Under the pieces are notes generated by a model, which did not search any database, was not told the origin of the DNA, and saw nothing but the letters and a program-made list of their open reading frames with translations. A stretch of 61,875 nt of DNA, counting the filler, from Sphacelaria rigidula (lineage: Eukaryota): assembly GCA_964200075.2 (NCBI GenBank). It is 11 parts of 11 records of this genome, joined end to end, with 100 filler letters (N's around TTAATTAATTAA, not from the genome) between each part and the next. Parts side by side here need not be neighbours in the genome. Positions count along the whole stretch, not along the records: positions 39,440 to 44,973 come from CAXNAA020026555.1; 10 more parts are not named here. One strand, given 5' to 3'. Of this stretch, positions 5,536 through 56,592 are shown piece after piece (within the stretch, counting starts at the first letter, position 1; every line of letters starts with the position of its first letter). The translations under genes were made by a program, and so were the position numbers.

Positions 5536-5635
5536 NNNNNNNNNNNNNNNNNNNNNNNNNNNNNNNNNNNNNNNNNNNNTTAATTAATTAANNNNNNNNN
5601 NNNNNNNNNNNNNNNNNNNNNNNNNNNNNNNNNNN
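5536..5635. other. Artificial contig spacer (44 N + TTAATTAATTAA + 44 N), first of ten
   Basis: Identical 100-bp spacers begin at 5536, 11170, 16804, 22438, 28072, 33706, 39340, 44974, 50608 and 56242, an exact 5634-bp period. TTAATTAATTAA places stop codons in all six frames. Confidence 0.98.
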
Positions 5636-10965: not shown

Positions 10966-11889
10966 TTATAAGTATCGTGTACGCTCTAGGAGAGATTCAG
11001 ACGCGATGGATGCCGGAGCCCGTGCAGATTGGGAAAAGCTTCAAAGGGAGCCGCAGAAGTTCGCGTGCATTACTCCGGAACGTTGTCGAATGCGTTTGAT
11101 ATATATATATATATATATATATACAAGGGGTTCGGCGGCTTCCGCCGCCACGCTCAATGAGATCGATAGNNNNNNNNNNNNNNNNNNNNNNNNNNNNNNN
11201 NNNNNNNNNNNNNTTAATTAATTAANNNNNNNNNNNNNNNNNNNNNNNNNNNNNNNNNNNNNNNNNNNNGGTTCCCCTCCCCCCCCCAACCCACAAAGAA
11301 AAAAAAAAAAAAGGCCCCCCCCCCCCCCCCCCCCCCCAGAAACACTCGCTGACGGAAAGTAAACATGAAAAAAAAAAACTCGCGGCCGGAAAGTGAACAT
11401 TAAAATAAATAAATAGAAAAGTGGGAAAGATTCAAAAAGTACACCGAAAATGGTAAAGAAAAAATTAAACAAACAAGGAAAAAAACCACAGACAGGGCAG
11501 AAAAGTAGGAGTGACCGACCTCTGCCACATGACTTCAGGTGAAAAAGGTCTTCCGCAACAAACAGACGCGATCATACCCAATCGAGGAAAAACAGAAAGC
11601 CGCGGGGATGGATTGCGGCTCATCTAGGTCGGCCACACTGTTTTGGGTATGAGGTCTCCCCTATGAACCCTACAGAAGCAAAGCACCAAACTGGGACTTG
11701 CTTACACGGGGAGGGAAGAACGGAGAGAGAAAGAGAGAGAGAGAGCGACATGCTTCCTATCTTGACGCCCTCAGTGTCGTCTGGCGGTTCGTTTCGGGAT
11801 TGGCATTCCCTGACTTTCTCCGGTGGTCCCTCTATATTTTTCTCGGCTGTGCCTTCTTGTTCTACATGGACGTACGTATGTACGTGCAG

Positions 11890-39439: not shown

Positions 39440-39560
39440 TGGCCAATGTCGCCAATATGAGGCGCTTCATGCAGCCTGATCCCGAAGATCAGGCGCTGCA
39501 TGGCCATTATTTCGTGACACTTTTAGCTGGTTTTTTGGGGGGGCTATAGTAGAAAGTGTC
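39440..39560. mobile_element. GAC-terminal MITE family right end at contig start
   Basis: TTTCGTGACACTTTTAGCTGGTTTT..GGGGGGGCTATAGTAGAAAGTGTC, the same as 10350-10403. Confidence 0.8.
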
Positions 39561-40164
39561 AAGCGAACGGATATAATGAGGGAAGGTGGAGCGGTTGTGG
39601 AGATGTCTGTCGAAAAATAAAGGATACCTGTAAAACAGGATTGGGCAGATAGATTTCTGGAACAAATGAAAAAGTAGCGAAGTACAGGTTCGTATTCGGT
39701 CGGCCGATACAGCAAAAAGTGCGAGGCCAAAAGAGGTCGAAGGGGAGACGGTGCGAAAGAAGTAGAAGCAGCGCGTCGAGAAGCGCGTGTAAAGCGCGAT
39801 TCAGGTGAAGGCGTGCGGTAGAAACATCGCTGCACGGGACAAACAGCAGAAAACGCTATGTTGAGGCAACTGCAGGTGCACCTGTACGTTACAGTAAGCT
39901 ACTGTAAAAACTCAATCACAAGGATGAAAACCAATTGACTCACGTAACAAAAATAAAAAATAAGGCTACAGCAAGATGGGAAAAACAGCAACTAGAGCGC
40001 AGTACAGACAGCTGATAAGTAAATAACTCCTCTACTCTGAAAAGGGAAACCAGGCACAGCACCCATACATGAGGATGCATTTGTAGTGAATTAAATTATT
40101 CACGCGAAGCTCGAATTTTCTTTCACTGTAGAAAATAATTCATATATATATATATAAAACAACG

Positions 40165-40830
40165 GACTTGTGTCTCCCACCGGTGCTGCGATCTGAGACA
40201 GCAATTTTACAAAGTATGATGTTTCTCTTCGAGATCAGGCTCAATTTCCACCCGGTGTTTTGCGTTTGATACATGAGTATCCACCAAATGACCTCACGGT
40301 TTCTAAGGAGTCTGTGTAAGCGGGGCAGGTAGGCAACTGGAGCGGCAAAATAACATAACACACGGCAATAACACGAAAACCCATGAACCCTGAATATATA
40401 ATACTCGTAAAGGACGACAAACTTTGACGTTTCTCTTCGAAATCAGGCTCAATTTCCACCCGGGGTTTTGCGTTCAGCACATGAGTATTCACTGGATGAC
40501 CTCACGGTATCGGAGAAGTCGGCGAACAGGGCACCTAGGCAACTGGCGCGGCAAAAGTACATAACACACGGCAGTAACACGAAAACCCGTGAACACTGAA
40601 TATATAAGAAGCGACTTGTGTCTCCCACCGGCGCGTGCGAGCTGAGCCGGCAATTTTACCAACTTTGATGTTTCTCTTCGAGAGTAAGCTCAATTTCCAC
40701 CCGTTTCTTTGCGTTCGGTACATGAGTATTCACCGGATGACCTCACGGTTTCTAAGGAGTCTGTGTAAGCCGGGCAGCTAGACAACTGACAGGGTAAAAG
40801 TACATAACACACGGCAATAGCACGTCAACC
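40165..40830. repeat. Tandem array of three 208-241-bp units downstream of the KDZ gene
   Basis: TCAATTTCCACCC at 40241, 40449 and 40690, each followed by ACATGAGTAT...ATGACCTCACGGT...ACATAACACACGGCA. Confidence 0.85.
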
Positions 40831-41086
40831 CATTAACCATTCGACCGCGAGGGTAGTCTATTTGCATCACGCATAGTTTTTCAAGTGAAATTGATGCCGA
40901 TCCATCCGGTGACTTAACCTCGCGGTCAAAGGGTTGAACATCGGAAGAAAACGAAGCGGTCCAAGCACTTTCGCTCCTGAAAGCGATCGCTAGTTCATTA
41001 TTTACAGTGCACCAGAGATCAACTCTACCAGTTGAACACAAGTCTAAATATCTCGCAACAATCATGCGTCATCTGCTGTGCATTTT

Positions 41087-44000
41087 TCACAACCACACCG
41101 ACACCATGCCCGATCTCCCCCACGGCATCTCCTTTTCCCAATTTCTACATGACTCAGGGCGGCGCTCTTGTAGCGTTACATTACATTGCGGCATCGCCCC
41201 TTTCTCTCGAGGTGTAGGGTGAAATCGCTTGTAACCGCCACGTTGTTTGCAGTGGCTACACGTACGGCACTGTTGTGGGGCTCGGAGTGGGCCCTTGGAC
41301 TTCTTGGGCGTGGGTTCGGAGTTAATCTCTACGTCCCCGCATCTCCCAACATCGTTCATCACTGCATCGTTCCCAGCTGCCGGGCCCGCGCCGCCCGCAG
41401 CATCCCCTTCCTCACCGCCGCCAATGCCTGCCTCAGAACGACTCCGCGGAACAGCAGGGGGTACTGCACTACCGACAAGACTAGCAAACAACGCCTCCCC
41501 TCATGGTTCCTGTAAAGAACCTCGCAATTCAGCATGCGTTTGACGTATAGTAAACGTTGTTTTCGTCGCATTGGCGCTCTGCTTAAACTGCTCGTAGTGA
41601 GACTGTAGTTGCTTGGAGGTTTCCCGGTAGACGGCTTCCCACTCCGTCCGACCGGACTCGATCGATTCACAGTGGTTATTCCACTCTACTGCCCACTTAC
41701 CGAAGTTGATACTCTGGTGCTGCTGGAGTCTCCCCATCCGATCGCCTGGAATGAAAAGGTACGCGTCAAGCTCGGTGGCGAATTTCCTCCTCTCGACTGC
41801 ATTGTGTACGGGCGTGTCAGGCATTCCAACATTCATCATGCATGCGTATTGCTTTGCAGAGTGCGTGAGCCTCGGGAGGGGCACCGGTTCCTGAACCATC
41901 CCTTGGTCACCAACGAAATCTGCTGGCACTCTGCCAACCGCACCACCCCATATGCTCTTCGAAAGCCCACTCCTCTCACCCGTGTCTGCAGCATCAAGTG
42001 CGGAGACCCACTCAGGAAACAAGGGGCTGTCCGGGTACCAAGTGGCCGTCTCGCGCTAAATGATCTCAATATCGAACTGGTCGAAATATCCTCCAATATC
42101 CTTCCGCAGGTCGCGGTTCTTCACAGCCATCTTGATATTCCAACGATGGTTGAACGCAAGGAGCATGGATTGAGCCAGCGAGGGAGATGCACAGTATGGA
42201 CTAATGCCGAGATAGCCCCCCCACAAAACATGCACCGGAGACCGTCCGACAAAGCGGCTGGAATCCCACCATTGGGCTCGTTTGCAGCCATTTCTCCCAC
42301 ATGAGAGGCGCGTATCAGTTCGATATCAGCTATACCGCCCAAATTAGTCGCGCCGTACAGCACGACACCAGCTCTAACGTAATTTATGATCATCGCCCCC
42401 GTGCACGTTGTTGGCCGGTTTGGGGGGGGGCTATCTCGGCAGCAGTCTATGGTAATAGCAACCTGCGGAGATAACGATGATAACCCTTTCGAGAACAAGC
42501 ATGTACAGGAAACGAAAAAACAAAAAACGCATGTCAGGTCCATACTACAAAATCTTTCCCGTCGCCAAGCCGAGGAGAGAAGTCACACACGTGGTACGAC
42601 CAACATAGATTTTTTTTTTTATGTCGATGGATTGGCTCGTTGATTTGATCTCCATTATTGTTCTGGACATGAACCTAACCTCAGTGCTATTGGTCCCTCT
42701 GACACAGCGCCACGTAGTGCTCCCGGCTGCGCTTTTGCCTGTTGCGCAGTGCTGGGGCACTCCGTCGGGGTTGCTGAGATAGCCAGCTTCGATGTGCTTG
42801 CGGAGGAGGTTAATGGCCTCCATAGCTTTTGGTCGAAGGAGAAGTTCTCCCGATTTCGCGTCGATCACCTTCCGGAATTGATCGATCCCTGAATCGAAAC
42901 GTGCCGACAAACGTTCCCGGTTTGGCACCAACCGCCGGCGGTTCCGCAAAACATAAAGTCCAGTTTTGTTCGTTGTAAGTTGCCACCTCCTCCGGTTTCA
43001 TGCTTTGCGTTTTCAGAGCTAACTCGACCTGTCATTACCGAACAGATATCTAGCTCGGAAACAAAATCGAAACGAGCGCAGTGGTTGCGATGCAAGCTTC
43101 AGCACACCGCCGGAACTCATATATGCACAATGTTAAAATCCTCACCGAAGTCACTCACGCAACCAACAGCAGACGAAATGTCAACAACACTTGCCTCTTT
43201 GATGTCGGCTAGACTTACGATGAAGTTGTTGCAAGCTTCTCTCGATCGAGCCATGAAGGGCCTGAAGGCACCATGGCTCTTTTTCAGCAGGTGCGACAGA
43301 CGGTGAAGTGCGTGAAAGATGTCGAGGCGAACCTTGAGCATGCGCCTCCTCTCCAGCAAAAACTGGAGGGATACAACCAACATTGAATAGCGGCAGTGGC
43401 AGTACACCGACGATTGGCGTCGGCAGGGAACAACCTTCAGAGACAACAGTTATATTCACTTTCAAAAATCACTTTCTACCTTCGCAGCATTGGCATCTTG
43501 GTCCATGTTGATATCACCATTGCTGTCGTCCACGGCTCCCGTGTGGCAAGCACGGCGCCTAAGACCGAGGTCACCGTCATCATGTCCATCGCTGTCCTCT
43601 CCGTCCTCATCCAAGTCTTCGTCATCTACAGGGAGAACCATGCAAATAAGTTTGGCTTGGGTTATACGATATCGTCGTGAACAAAGCGCGAAGTACCCAA
43701 AATGCAAGGGTTTCACGAGCCATCACATTGCCATCACAGAAGGGGGCAAGATCTTACCTGGCAAGCGCACGACATGGCAAGGTGGATCAGCAGCGAAGAA
43801 CTCGGCGTCATCATCGTGAGCGGCACTTGTACTCTTTGTTGCCGAAGGTGCCGGTGTCGGAGGACGTGGTGTCAAACCCCTCGCGAGGCGAATATGGGCA
43901 ACGTCCCACAGAACAAGACAGTCGTCATCGCTCTCGAAGACGTCTTTCAACGTCACACGTTTCACACCGGAGACAGAAGGTGAACTTTTGTGCGGAGTAA

Positions 44001-44870
44001 ACGCAGCAGGCACGAGCGCCTTAATCAGCTTGACTACAATAACACCCTTCAACCGTTGCCAGTATCTAGGGCGCCACCGACGCAGAGCTTCCTCGTCATC
44101 CTGCACCTCCCCAAGACCAACACAATTGGCATGGTCGTTGCTGTAGAGACGCACCTATTAAAACAGCAGGATACAGCATAAAATTTGCGGGCGTGATAGC
44201 AGTATCTCTTGCGAGCGATCGTGATGTACATCCAACATGATTGAACGGCGCAAGTAAACAGCTTCGGCGCACCTGATACAAACATGGCATTCGTACCTTC
44301 GTTCCAACCAGCAGCGTCGTCGGTGCGGGGGTGCGTATGTGGTCTTTCAGTCTCTCGATTTCCTGGTACACAAGCACGGACGCGTACGTTTAGGCACGCG
44401 TACTGCACCTGTGATCATAAGAAGAGCGTGGTTCATCATGAGAACATGAACAAAACAGCAAGTTGAAAAGCGCTACGCAAACAACAAAGCAGTGATGAGA
44501 AAGATACTACAAGAAAATCGTTGCAGGTGCAAAATCAACGCGCAGAGCTTCCTAAATCCCACCTGCTCATTTGTGAGGGAATCGCTGCTCCATCGAGAGA
44601 AGCGGATGGTCGGATCTTTAGGGAGTTCTTTCCCGATCAAAGCACCCTCCATGCCCGCCAGCGAACGAGACGGCGTCTCCACCTAACACTCTCTTGCGTG
44701 AGTCCTCACGTCCACGGTGTTGGCGACGTCGACGCCATAGTCTCGCTCCAAAAGGGAAGCATCAGAATTCACATTTACATCAATCTGGAGATGAGCGGAA
44801 GCGGCAGACTGCATGAGTAACGCACACGCACCGCATTTGTACCTTAGTACTTTGAAAATAGGAATCACTA
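41087..44870 (-). pseudogene. KDZ-superfamily (Kyakuja/Zisupton-like) transposase with WRN-type 3'-5' exonuclease domain, spliced and decayed, 5' end beyond contig
   Basis: Exonuclease: VNVNSDASLLERDYGVDVANTVDV; SLAGMEGALIGKELPKDPTIRFSRWSSDSLTNEQ|VQYACL. Transposase: KVRLDIFHALHRL...HGAFRPFM; RRLVPNRERL...DAKSGELLL...HIEAGYLSNPDGV...WRCVRGTNSTE; ASPSLAQSMLLAFNHRWN. C-terminal CRTCSHCK...H...C finger. GT-AG introns, frameshifts, an in-frame stop and a MITE insertion are present. Confidence 0.8.
42199..42447. mobile_element. 249-bp GAC-terminal MITE inserted in the KDZ coding sequence
   Basis: TIR GACT(AA/GC)TGCCGAGATAGCCCCCCC with a perfect 4-bp TSD TATG (42195-42198 and 42448-42451). Removing it restores the frame LLLPY|CASPSLAQSML. 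Confidence 0.88.
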
Positions 44871-45184
44871 ACCATATATTTGCGATGGAAGGGTCTTCCA
44901 GAACTTGTCGCCAGCAATGCTAGGGTAGGGGTGCACTTCTTTCGCGATTTTTTGTCTGGTTCAGGGGCTCCTANNNNNNNNNNNNNNNNNNNNNNNNNNN
45001 NNNNNNNNNNNNNNNNNTTAATTAATTAANNNNNNNNNNNNNNNNNNNNNNNNNNNNNNNNNNNNNNNNNNNNATTTTAATCCTCCGGGTTCTCATCCTC
45101 AATGAAGAGCACCATCCTCAACATAGATGATCGGCTGTTCTTTTATGTATTTACACCTGCCTGACTCGTTTACCACGACTGCAG

Positions 45185-48100
45185 ACAGAGGAAGCAATCG
45201 GTCAACTACGTGAACTCGTCGATACCGCGGGGGGAAATACGGTGATTCTCACTGGCGCCGGCGTTTCCACTGACAGTGGGATACCCGACTACCGGGGTCC
45301 TCAGGGCTCGTACTCGCGAGGGCACAAACCCATGATGCACGGCGAGTTCATATCATCCGAGGCAAATCGCAAGCGGTGAGACAAATAGTGGAAATTGGGT
45401 CAGGAAGATGTGTATAGCAGGGGGGAGCCACTTTAAGCGCGGTATAATGCCGGAAAAAGTGGACCGCCTTGAAGTGAGACTCAGCCTCGAAATGAATTGG
45501 GCCATACCTACCAGAAGAGTAATGATGCCAGTGTGGGAACCACCGCACAAAAGGGACAAATTCCCACAAGTGTCCGTCAAGGAATCACCTTTTCACATTG
45601 GCGACACTATGAGATAGCTCGTACGCTTCACGAACAGAAGGTCCCGTGTTCAAATCCCGGATCCCTCCAACATGGTGGGAGCCAAAAAAATGGTGGATAC
45701 CCTCTGAAGCAGAGTTCAAAACTCACGGAAAATCTCCTGAGGCGATTGTCGGTTGGGTGACCCAACACACGTGGAAGATATGTGGATTAAAAGGCAAGAT
45801 TTCAGCCGCTAGCTGGCGTAAAAGGTTTCTCCTACAAAACCTCGAAGAGGTCCATGAGGGGGGGGGGATGTGGGAACCATCATATAGAGGGGACAAATTC
45901 CCACATGTGTCTGCCAAGGAACCACCTTTTCACACCAGCCGATTTTACCGCCGTAGGGTGCAGCCTCACCTTGAAAAGGACTCCCTTAAAGTGGGGACAC
46001 CACTGCGCGAAATGATCTTATATGGGAGTACGTGCGCCTAACGCTGTGGTTCCTTGATTGCTGAGTCGTAACCTACTCCCGCAGCCTTGCTCCTTGCACT
46101 GAGTTCTCTCCATAGCCCTGGTGGGGCTTTGCACGGGAGGCTCTCTCAGAAGCATTTTCAGTCCAACAGCCCTATCGGTTTATCCTGCTTGCTCCCCATG
46201 TCTTTGTTCCCTTCTTTTTCTTCTTGGGTTGCCTCCAACCGGTATAATTTTTGTTAACCCACCCTCGATACGTCTGTCTTATGACCATGGGTGGATTCAT
46301 CGCGTATATGTCTATGGGGGAAAATCGAACAATCAGCATGCACACCTCGCGAGCGCTCCACCTTGTGCCACGCATTCAATTTTCCTTCTTCCCTGTTGGA
46401 GGAGGGATGAATCGTAGCTTCGCACTGGTTCATGTGATCGCTTGCTGCGGTGTTCATCCCATGAAGGTGTATCAAACGCGGCGAAACATGCCCAGGTTAT
46501 CAGCGAAATCAAAATCGGAAATGTGTCCACGGAAGATAGTCTGGCACGAGAGGATCGGTGATACATTTTGCTTGAGCCGCCCGCAACCATTGGGGGGTGG
46601 GGCGGTAGACCCCACGTGTAGTTTCGGAGAAGGTGTAATATGGCGCGGATCTATCTTCCTTGCATGTTGATCGAGAGTGAGTCGGGACTCGCTCAAGAGA
46701 ATCAGGACGGCAAGCATACACCTCGTTGTTGGACTAATGCCAGGTACTGGGCGCGCTCGGTGTTTGGATGGAGCAGTTTCAGCGCCGCCAGACCGAATGC
46801 GGCGCATTTTGCGCTTGCGGCGTTAGAGGCTGCGGGAAAAATTAGCGGAATCATAACGCAGGTACGGCGGAGCCAAATGGCGTTGAAAAAGAGCGCTCGC
46901 ACCTTTTACCCCAAATGCGCCGGTTGCCTCATTCGTGGTCAAACTCAATATCGTGTAGCTTGCCTGTGACGAGTATCGAGCAGTGCGAGTTCTCGGGGGG
47001 GGGGGGTGCAAATTATTGACTTCTCGCAATTCATGTTCTGAAGGATACTTCATGGAAATATAACACGGTGTAGCAAAACCAGCTGAACAACAGCTTGTGC
47101 ACCTTTCGTGGCGGTAACCCTCGCTAGAAGCAGCGCGGATGTTAGTCCGCAGAGCAGCTGCAGATCGTGTATGATATTCACCCCAAGAAAGTCAAGACGG
47201 AGTTGTTGGTGATACAAAAGTCCGCGTGGCTCGCTCGTGTTTTCCGTGCTCTGCCTGTACGTACACGCGTGAGGTTTCTTTACCACTTGGTCGATGAAGG
47301 AATTCATCGGAAACATATTTTTTCGAATAACGCTAACCCTAACCCTAATCCCAACCCAAGGCATACCGAGAACCCTGGGGCGGGGGGGGGGGTGAAGTGT
47401 CCCGTAGGCAAAGTGTGGCGTTTGCAGACCTCAAAACGGCGCCGATTTTGATAAAAACGCGTTCTGCGCACGCGAGGGGTAGACAGCCCGCTAAAGATCC
47501 GAATATTGGTGTTTACACTTAGATCAAGTAATAAGATTCCGGGGAGGTTCTAATCGAGCAACTGGTGAACACTACGGATACGCGCGTAAACACTGGCACA
47601 CATTGCATTTTTGCTAGAGCTGTGTTGATCTCTCTCTCTGTCTTCCTTTCTCTCTTTTTCTCTCGCATGTCTCATTTCCCTGCCGCCTAAGAACGTGGAT
47701 GGTTTGCACCAGAAGGCGGGCAATCGAAACGTCGTTGACCTGCACGGACGGAACGACAAGGTATGTATTCACGAGTTTTGCGGTGTTTGAGACAATTTTA
47801 GGTGTTTGTCTCGACAGTGTGCTGTCGCTGCACCCCGATGGTCAAACGGGCGCTTTGAAACTGGTCAAGTCGTTTTTTGTGGATCTGAATCCTGGCCTTG
47901 AAGCTTTTTTTTTCTGTTTCTCGTCATCCGAAAATGTGTAGACGATATTTGGCAAAATCCGGTCGATGAAAAATCGACGGACTTCGGGAGTGGTGATAGT
48001 CATGATCCATGATCCAATGCCGATCACAGTATGCAAGGCGGGTACGGGGCGAGAGATGGGTTGGTCCTCTTGGACGGCAGACACATCCCGAGGACGGGGG

Positions 48101-55545: not shown

Positions 55546-56592
55546 ACTGTATCACTTGTTTCCTACCATAGATTAGAACGGCGCGTGATTTCTCGTGATG
55601 ATGCAGTTGTGGACCGTCACTTCACTATCACTATCACTATCACGAAATGATTGTCATTTCCTTTGTTCTGTTGAAACATCGCCTTACCGTGTTTCTGTAG
55701 GCCGCTAGGCTCTTACTTAACCCTTTTGTGACTGAAGCTCAGTAACAAGGGGTTCACCATGTATTTGTGAAATGATAATAAACACGTCTGGGAGCGATCT
55801 CCCCAATCATGGCGAGGCGAAAATTATCGACCACATCCGAACGACCAGTGGATGGGGCCTGTCGCCGGGATTGATGTCACTGTAAAGTTGGTGTACCTGT
55901 CACTGGCCCACAAAAAAGCCGTCGAAGCAAAAGGAAGCCCAAGTGGTCAGGGCTCGGATTCCCCATTTTTTTTATCATTTACTTGCATTCTATATAGGTC
56001 CGACCTCCCATGCGCCGATTTTTTTGGGGTCACCATCCCGTGGTCAAACCTTGTTGATAACACCAACACGTAGTGCTCGGGGGAAATTCGGGAAGAAATG
56101 CACCGTACTATATATATGTGGTCATGTTCACAAGGCGGCTGAAAAAGAAGGAAAGAAAAAAAGAAAAAGGCGGCTGAATTTAGCAACGCTGTGGGACGAG
56201 AGACGGAGCTAGAGGCATGCGTTCTGCGTATCCCTCTGTCGNNNNNNNNNNNNNNNNNNNNNNNNNNNNNNNNNNNNNNNNNNNNTTAATTAATTAANNN
56301 NNNNNNNNNNNNNNNNNNNNNNNNNNNNNNNNNNNNNNNNNGTTCCGGCTTTGTAGGGATGCGAAGACAATGGTCATACGACTACGGCATGCATGATCAT
56401 GAGTACACCCTCCCCTGCCGCCTATGATCACTATTATCCAAGTGTCAATAGCCTGATCAGCGCTGTACCTTTTTCAATCGCTGCGAAGTACCGGGGGGAA
56501 AATCACCACAGCCGCTGTCACTCAACGTGTTGGCGCCACCTCTATTCTTGTGGTACATCATGTGACCCCAACCAATCACGTGGACGACTTAC

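Follow-up and report, generated by a model that had tools for sequence, protein, structure and literature searches.

A spliced transposase gene was analysed in a 61,875-nt stretch of DNA (here called the window) from the brown alga Sphacelaria rigidula, where it occupies positions 41062-44912 of the minus strand. Domain architecture, motif spacing, host range and predicted fold together indicate that this gene is in all likelihood what is left of an autonomous Dada-superfamily DNA transposon, in a copy that has decayed and lost its 5' part and that belongs to the exonuclease-bearing subgroup of Ectocarpus and Agaricales.

Organization of the transposase gene

The window comprises 11 pieces, each of ~5534-5535 nt, that are chained by ten N44-TTAATTAATTAA-N44 linkers (5536-5635, 11170-11269, ... 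56242-56341). The transposase gene lies on a contig piece of its own (39440-44973, 5.5 kb), and the next linker starts at 44974. Since the window is a chain of unrelated contigs, genes on the other pieces, for example a Sir2-like open reading frame, do not constitute its genomic context.

What remains of the gene encodes the C-terminal ~870 codons of the transposase, in the order partial DEDDy exonuclease, β-rich segment, acidic linker, DxxH motif, catalytic Glu and CCHC finger. All of the motif strings quoted in a preliminary description of the locus were recovered on the minus strand, at 41087-44919. The closest proteins come from Sphacelaria and Ectocarpus, in agreement with the view taken there that this is a spliced transposase gene of a brown alga. 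Indeed, the gene is colinear, from 44910 to 41065, with a 995-residue predicted protein of S. rigidula (P0001), with an identity of 60-88% per block (88% for the C-terminal 358-361 residues, 60-83% for the remaining blocks). The longest single-frame piece, 41501-42055, matches P0001 with 91% identity over 184 residues and the Ectocarpus protein P0004 with 62%. When 156 collected proteins were compared with the window by tblastn, all 225 high-scoring segment pairs fell within 41065-44910. Pfam searches of ten single-frame pieces of the window gave nothing significant. In the direction of transcription, the parts of the gene are as follows.

44563-44912, minus strand: exonuclease exon with the ExoII region (..LEDPSIA / (I)DVNVNSDASLLERDYG ... 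SLTNEQ); tblastn match to P0001 122-206
44409-44562, minus strand: intron, 154 nt, GT..AG
44297-44408, minus strand: exon with the ExoIII motif (VQYACLN / YASVLVYQEIERLKD..); 2-nt deletion at 44386/7
44155-44296, minus strand: intron, 142 nt, GT..AG
43758-44154, minus strand: exon, β-rich segment between exonuclease and catalytic core; 83% identical to P0001 229-363
43626-43757, minus strand: intron, 132 nt, GT..AG
43480-43625, minus strand: exon, acidic disordered linker (DDEDLDEDGEDSDGHDDGD...); predicted local distance difference test score (pLDDT) <50 over P0001 324-438
43435-43479, minus strand: short intron, 45 nt, GT..AG, as in the P0001 gene model
43191-43434, minus strand: exon with the DxxH motif VRLDIFHAL; Asp at 43323-21, His at 43314-12
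43029-43190, minus strand: intron-like stretch, GT..AG; the frame does not close across it (-1 to -2)
42680-43028, minus strand: exon ending in RCVRGTNSTE; catalytic Glu (GAG) at 42682-80; +1 frameshift near 42950
42486-42679, minus strand: intron, 194 nt, GT..AG, with GYHRYLRRLLLP directly after the AG
42448-42485, minus strand: exon piece GYHRYLRRLLLP(Y), cut by a nested insertion; matches P0001 607-618
41062-42194, minus strand: last exon, from YCASPSL.. through AFNHRWN.. to the CCHC finger, with a TGA stop at 41064-62; 88% identical to P0001 618-978
40968-41061, minus strand: 3' untranslated stretch common to at least one other copy; a 2.6-kb contig aligns over 40968-41489 with ~83% identity (sequencing runs X1, X2 and X3, see below)

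When the gene is compared with P0001, the frame is closed by five GT..AG introns but not by the sixth GT..AG stretch (43029-43190). The two introns named in the preliminary description, 44409-44562 and 44155-44296, are GT..AG bounded at exactly the same coordinates. In addition, an in-frame stretch of the first exon, ~44785-44880, looks like an intron but has no recognisable donor site, and the exon encoding DxxH differs from other copies by 6 nt inserted at 43225. In the last exon, the Asn of FNHRWN is conserved in 28/28 relatives, and the CCHC finger (41269-41183) has the spacing C-x2-C-x12-H-x11-C.

The β-rich segment is a common feature of the family, with at least 80 aligned residues in 23/32 relatives. 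The structure model of P0001 displays five strands here (residues 228-321, pLDDT 60-88). Overall this model is moderate (pLDDT 64.8, predicted template-modelling score 0.45) because strands 1-4 of the core are absent from the gene model. Similarity of the segment to known structures is confined to weak Atlas leads, namely plant DUF8039 and transposon-protein clusters with template-modelling (TM) scores of 0.48-0.61; DUF8039 was not reported for P0001 by Pfam at E ≤ 1.

Decay of the window copy

The window copy is dead, as had been stated before. Its reading path contains three stop codons (44685-83, a TAG at a Trp of P0001; 42058-56, at a Gln; and 41503-01, at a Gly), at least three frameshifts (the 2-nt deletion at 44386/7, +1 near 42950 and +1 at ~41141) and a nested miniature inverted-repeat transposable element (MITE). 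Copy number and variants were read from the contigs of four public sequencing runs of the same organism (X1, X2, X3 and X8); in X1 a single contig has a depth of ~62, and repeats were compared with this yardstick by summed contig depth. Other copies, as represented by these contigs, are free of the nested MITE, of the private stop and of the frameshifts. The base that restores Gln at 42058 (C on the coding strand) is found in 11, 8, 2 and 1 contigs of X1, X2, X3 and X8, respectively; an extra CG behind 44386 is found in two contigs of X1, none of X2 and one of X3; and the extra base at 41141 is missing from 2, 3, 1 and 1 contigs of the four runs. No RNA run was listed for the stretch; X8 is only tentatively an RNA run, and its contigs over parts of the gene (depth 2-6; 40952-41199, 41911-42148 and 43231-43440) do not show transcription of this copy.

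Of the DEDDy residues, the ExoII Asp (VNVNSD) and the ExoIII Tyr (YACLN) are present, while the ExoIII position occupied by the catalytic Asp in relatives (44390-88) reads AAC, encoding Asn. If the two bases at 44386/7 are restored, the exon reads through a family-like ExoIII (consensus QxxYAALDAYAS), save for this Asn. The exonuclease of the window copy is not intact, therefore, because ExoI is missing, the ExoIII Asp is changed to Asn and a 2-nt deletion lies next to it.

Homology to the transposase ends at 44910-44912 and a high-copy repeat begins at 44913. Both Asp residues of the catalytic DDE (Asp-Asp-Glu) triad (D1 and D2), ExoI and the N-terminal Cys4 finger lie off the contig, so that the Glu is the only member of the triad in the window copy and the two Asp residues are known from relatives. 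The 5' half of the gene would once have existed in this copy; its loss is put down to insertion of a repeat, with the break in the assembly coming next. Cleavage, joining and trimming are not possible for the window copy because the part upstream of ExoII is gone and because of the lesions, the nested MITE and the ExoIII Asn.

Relatives and conserved residues

The exon containing RCVRGTNSTE was searched against 1.84 billion protein representatives, which yielded 153 proteins at E ≤ 0.001. When 38 long matches, one of them a bacterial Ig-repeat false positive, were scanned with Pfam (E ≤ 0.001), the 3'-5' exonuclease family PF01612 was found in 31/38 and an N-terminal DUF6729 in 13/38, which bears out the link to DUF6729 drawn in the preliminary description; two of the 38 carry OTU or Ulp1 protease domains. 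In all 12 single-unit DUF6729 proteins the order is DUF6729, exonuclease, query domain. Members with a named host come from Ectocarpus (among them P0022), chytrids, an aphelid and Agaricales.

The previously proposed WRN-type DEDDy exonuclease is well supported by these proteins. In P0001, PF01612 is matched at residues 68-205 with an E-value of 1.9e-9, and by no other family is this protein matched. With the exonuclease stretch of the window itself, PF01612 is matched no better than at E 0.1, so the exonuclease assignment rests on the intact relatives.

Residue conservation was examined in an alignment of 29 relatives, of which 26 contain PF01612, using the numbering of the aphelid protein P0121. 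The Cys cluster C-x4-C...C-x2-C is conserved at C255 (14/14), C260 (11/12) and C293 (12/12), and the core Asp residues at D447 (15/16) and D517 (20/20). These are followed by the exonuclease residues D581 (24/24), E583 (23/24), D616 (24/26), Y687 (25/25) and D691 (25/25), by the DxxH motif (D739, 27/29; H742, 28/29) and by the catalytic Glu, E894, which together with its preceding Gly-Thr is present in 29/29.

The DUF6729 (PF20499) match, for example residues 230-386 of P0121, takes in the Cys4 cluster that is conserved ahead of the first catalytic Asp. This suggests that DUF6729 corresponds to the N-terminal zinc-finger region of Dada, as it appears from the position of the match in the protein sequences; in the literature searched, no mention of DUF6729 was found, and hence none that equates it with the Dada finger.

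Three observations on individual protein models were made in addition. The Sphacelaria models P0001 and P0005 jump from ..LTNEQ to EIERLKD.. and so skip the ExoIII motif (Y-x3-D) that is encoded in the DNA, whereas Ectocarpus P0022 keeps it; the two Sphacelaria models were probably mis-predicted or built on frameshifted copies. P0019 of Podochytrium (3352 residues) has an OTU domain as well as three DUF6729-exonuclease units in tandem, and P0102 (1268 residues) has a C-terminal Ulp1 (C48) protease. The OTU and Ulp1 modules may be accessory domains of the transposon lineage, or may come from merged gene models.

Structural model of a full-length relative

For P0121, AlphaFold gave a confident model, with a pLDDT of ~85-93 over residues 230-1090. 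The core of this model runs from strands 1-3 and a helix to strand 4, with two Asp residues in this part, and then, after the exonuclease, to the DxxH strand and a helix that opens with the Glu. The insert (residues 538-706) superimposes on the mouse WRN exonuclease with a Z-score of 20.2 (root-mean-square deviation 2.0 Å over 162 residues, 33% identity), and a Foldseek comparison of the exonuclease insert with human WRN gave an E-value of 9.3e-8.

Outside the insert, the model resembles transposases and integrases. The best match is to the ISCth4 transposase (residues 323/332 to 1126, Z 13.7-13.8, 271-281 residues), followed by the P element transposase (319 to 947, Z 8.9), the hAT transposase Hermes (424 to 938, Z 8.4) and retroviral integrases (~439 to 940-1130, Z 7.4-8.7). 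Every one of these structural matches bridges the exonuclease insert. The model therefore places a WRN-like exonuclease within an RNase H-like core, after strand 4 and before the DxxH strand, and predicts a catalytic core that is closest to ISCth4 among solved transposases. An exonuclease inside the transposase fold and upstream of DxxH, as had been proposed from the window alone, is supported by both this model and the order of residues in the relatives.

In intact relatives, the protein comprises, from the N-terminus, the Cys4 finger (DUF6729), strand 1 with the first Asp, strand 4 with the second Asp and then the exonuclease. This is usually followed by a small β-rich module and a disordered acidic linker, leading to the DxxH strand. 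Next, the catalytic Glu (RGTNxxEGxxH) opens a helix, and the C-terminal part is made up of a helical region and the CCHC finger.

Probable assignment to the Dada superfamily

The Dada superfamily was described by Kojima & Jurka (2013; PMC3706591). Dada transposases have a DDE triad whose second Asp is followed by a DxxH motif. Zinc fingers lie at both ends of the protein, CCCC at the N-terminus and CCHC at the C-terminus, and the genes contain introns in all elements save those of Perkinsus. The elements generate 6-7-bp duplications, have sub-terminal rather than terminal inverted repeats and insert in U6, U1 or tRNA genes, the targets being given only for elements with definable termini. In the Dada elements of Laccaria and Ectocarpus, a DEDDy exonuclease lies between the second Asp and DxxH. 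Finally, Dada was grouped with hAT, P, MuDR, Kolobok and IS256 via the C/DxxH motif, and HHpred revealed similarity to the integrases of avian sarcoma virus (ASV) and human immunodeficiency virus (HIV). The transposase-fold matches of P0121 agree with both the C/DxxH placement and these integrase matches.

The window copy itself displays the DxxH motif, the C-terminal CCHC finger, introns, and ExoII and ExoIII upstream of DxxH. Moreover, the spacing of catalytic residues in the relatives is close to that of the zebrafish element Dada-U6_DR, for which C389/C394/C429/C432, D567, D635 and E811 are reported (PMC3706591). The D1-D2 distance is 70 in relatives vs 68 in Dada-U6_DR; the D2-E distance is 377, or ~177 once the insert of ~200 residues is subtracted, vs 176; and the Cys cluster reads C-x4-C-x32-C-x2-C vs C-x4-C-x34-C-x2-C.

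The gene is also present in several copies. Each variant site is covered by 2-17 diverged contigs in X1, and the summed depth of the gene body is 410-930 vs ~62 for a single contig. Paralogues are found within single genomes, P0001 and P0005 in Sphacelaria and P0121 and P0156 in the aphelid. Together, the diverged contigs, these paralogues and the decay are indicative of a low-copy transposon family.

Several points weigh against the Dada assignment. It is drawn from architecture, motif spacing, host range and fold rather than from alignment to named Dada sequences. No animal Dada protein of the kind that lacks the exonuclease was reached in two follow-up sequence searches, both limited by a word filter: residues 225-530 of P0121 retrieved only two aphelid paralogues, and a profile search with the family alignment gave four matches, none of them animal proteins. 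The only link to chordate DUF6729 clusters is through Atlas leads, in which the C-terminal half of P0001 has feature scores of 0.87-0.91 and TM scores of at most 0.46. No small-RNA target was detected, with 0 tRNAs by ARAGORN and 0 Rfam matches, either at the gathering threshold in the window or at E ≤ 1 on the contig. The termini and a target-site duplication are not definable in a copy whose 5' end is missing, and D1, D2, ExoI and the Cys4 finger, as said above, are to be found in relatives only. With a simple pattern, the CCHC finger was recovered in no more than 5/29 relatives, and the spacing of this finger in the window differs from the C-x2-C-x9-H-x8-C of Dada-U6_DR.

The missing alignment to named elements and the missing small-RNA target would also suit a separate, unnamed lineage akin to Dada, IS256 and MuDR, which would have only the C/DxxH-type core in common with them and would have gained its exonuclease independently of Dada-1_ES (Ectocarpus siliculosus) and the Dada elements of Laccaria. 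Such a lineage would be consistent with phmmer and profile matches that stayed among exonuclease-bearing algal and fungal proteins, and with the extra β-rich module, which the passages of PMC3706591 consulted do not mention. However, published Dada is matched in host range (Ectocarpus and Agaricales), in the position of the insert, in both zinc fingers (Cys4 and CCHC) and in D-D-E spacing, and the low copy number resembles that of the single Dada family (15 copies, one intact) in a 2025 census of Ectocarpus transposable elements. This alternative is considered unlikely.

The preliminary description had assigned the gene to the KDZ (Kyakuja/Dileera/Zisupton) transposases and taken the WRN-type exonuclease to be an acquisition of that group. 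KDZ transposases are likewise large, intron-containing and of the DDE type, and they are present in brown algae, with 8 families and 6,403 copies in the Ectocarpus census. One of ten window pieces gave a sub-threshold match to CxC1, a KDZ-associated Cys cluster (E 0.035, 14.7 bits vs a cut-off of 26.9). Against this, the Pfam KDZ family (PF18758) was found in 0/38 relatives (E ≤ 0.001), in 0/5 of P0001-P0005 (E ≤ 1), on none of the ten window pieces (E ≤ 1) and not in P0121 (E ≤ 10). Of the 31 families matched in the 29 relatives (E ≤ 10), 25 were listed, and KDZ was not one of them; the six unlisted families are single-member matches weaker than E 0.25. CxC clusters were seen neither in P0001-P0005 nor among the listed families. 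The layout with an exonuclease in the core is described for Dada and not for KDZ (PMC3706591), and a 2025 paper on KDZ and TET does not mention an exonuclease. Dada and Zisupton/KDZ are kept apart by Repbase and by the Ectocarpus census, and it is the separate Dada superfamily that the layout fits. The KDZ assignment was accordingly abandoned as improbable.

A domesticated host gene, in which a WRN-like exonuclease was joined to a transposase-derived domain and of which the window would hold a pseudogene copy, could be argued from the undemonstrable termini and target-site duplications and from the annotation of the Sphacelaria and Ectocarpus models as ordinary proteins, but is very improbable given that a single organism has several diverged copies which differ in their lesions and nested repeats, and given the paralogues within single genomes (P0001/P0005 and P0121/P0156), the conservation of all catalytic residues across distant hosts with a patchy distribution, and the occurrence in relatives of OTU or Ulp1 protease modules that are typical of transposons.

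Repeats in and around the gene

The contig contains the following repeats, given with their summed depth in X1 where this was determined.

42195-42447, no strand assigned: nested MITE-like insertion, 248 bp plus one TATGG copy (5-bp duplication), with ~27-nt inverted ends
44913-44973, no strand assigned: first part of a repeat of very high copy number, which breaks into the exonuclease coding sequence and runs to the contig end; summed depth 266,905
39440-39547, no strand assigned: high-copy repeat at the other contig end; summed depth 753,006
40835-40935, no strand assigned: inverted-repeat element of 101 nt from another high-copy family, with 21-nt arms that are 86% complementary; summed depth 62,576
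40150-40850, no strand assigned: on the 3' side of the gene, tandem-like series of three to four units that measure 204-243 nt and are 71-90% alike

The preliminary description had proposed to excise 42199-42451, and this stretch corresponds to the nested insertion at 42195-42447. MITE-free copies, in which 42194 is joined straight to 42448, are represented by 3, 4, 4 and 0 contigs of X1, X2, X3 and X8, that is, in three of the runs. The inverted ends of the insertion terminate in a C/G run. Its family is extremely abundant, with a summed depth of 434,483 in X1, thousands of times the depth of single-copy sequence, and is among the commonest repeats of the Sphacelaria genome. Within the repeat at the low end of the contig, positions 39530-39547 match the inverted end of the insertion over 18 nt.

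At the 5' side of the gene remnant, each DNA run has 118-131 contigs with loose ends 'before 44913', the agreement of which is low. On the 3' side, the 101-nt element lies 130 nt beyond the stop codon of the transposase, and loose ends occur behind 40935. Joints from 40932/40937 to 44913/44918 and from 42447 to 44913 were considered as an empty site; this was rejected, as their sides are <30 nt and are read as high-copy repeats that adjoin elsewhere.

The tandem-like units at 40150-40850 have a summed depth of 311-545, similar to the 410-930 of the gene body, and such units also flank another copy, the contig of which joins 40575 to 40968. These units may be the 3' subterminal region of the transposon or its target array; Rfam gave no match at E ≤ 1 on the contig (39440-44973), these units included.

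On the next piece of the window, the Sir2-like open reading frame (45131-45379, plus strand) contains an N-terminal motif of PF02146 (E 5.8e-5, 23.6 bits, cut-off 24). It is probably an exon of a sirtuin gene and unrelated to the transposon.

Comparison with known systems

Among known elements, the closest likeness is to Dada-1_ES of Ectocarpus siliculosus and to Dada-1_LB and Dada-2_LB of Laccaria bicolor. As described in PMC3706591, these have in common with the present family the DxxH motif, the exonuclease between the second Asp and DxxH, the CCHC finger, introns, a brown-algal or Agaricales host and an element length of a few kb (4.7 kb for Dada-1_ES). The comparison is one of descriptions, and the window copy differs in its host genus, Sphacelaria, in being dead and 5'-incomplete and in its ExoIII Asp-to-Asn change. 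Animal Dada elements such as Dada-U6_DR resemble the relatives in the Cys4 pattern and in the D1-D2 and insert-corrected D2-E distances; unlike the present family they are devoid of the exonuclease, and they target U6, U1 or tRNA genes with 6-7-bp duplications, whereas no small-RNA gene lies on this contig.

The KDZ/Zisupton transposases (PF18758) are similar in being large, intron-containing eukaryotic enzymes with Cys clusters that are present in brown algae. According to PMC12730594, Zisupton elements have terminal inverted repeats and 8-bp duplications, Kyakuja elements have 7-bp duplications and CA..TG ends, and both associate with TET/JBP genes. Such ends, duplications and TET/JBP association were not seen here, the ends of the transposon being off the contig or not definable.

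With the ISCth4 transposase (PDB 6XG8/6XGX) the family has its predicted core fold in common, both sides of the insert being matched at a sequence identity of 8-9%. ISCth4, a member of the bacterial IS256 family, has neither an inserted exonuclease nor the zinc fingers of Dada. The C/DxxH signature is common to IS256 and Dada (PMC3706591). The insert, in turn, resembles the exonuclease domain of WRN (PDB 2E6L, 2FBX) in its fold and DEDDy residues; in WRN this is the N-terminal domain of a RecQ repair helicase, whereas here it is predicted to occupy a loop of the transposase core.

An exonuclease within a DDE transposase core has been known from a brown alga since 2013, when Dada-1_ES was described with such an insertion (PMC3706591), contrary to the earlier impression that this architecture was uncharacterised in brown algae. 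Because this design was already published for Ectocarpus, the window copy, a dead fragment, adds no new kind of element and counts as an ordinary relic. Tentatively, and with rather less confidence than the Dada assignment itself, the exonuclease-bearing Dada elements might be viewed as a distinct and widespread lineage of brown algae, chytrids, an aphelid and Agaricales. Such a lineage would have an IS256/ISCth4-like core, usually an extra β-barrel between the exonuclease and the DxxH strand, and DUF6729 as the Dada Cys4 DNA-binding region; it would not target small-RNA genes, and may travel with, or insert into, its own tandem repeats of ~210-240 nt.

Two practical consequences follow for annotation and method. 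The 'unnamed protein products' of this type in Sphacelaria and Ectocarpus, and many fungal proteins annotated as 'hypothetical' or '3'-5' exonuclease domain-containing', would be Dada transposases. In addition, chained contigs of equal length make unrelated genes look like neighbours.

For the intact members of the family, the DDE core would cut and join the transposon ends, and the built-in exonuclease may trim the 3' ends exposed by cleavage, leaving the exact 3'-OH for strand transfer, as envisaged after Kojima & Jurka (2013). By locating a WRN-like insert in an ISCth4-like core, the structural model makes this end-trimming role testable.

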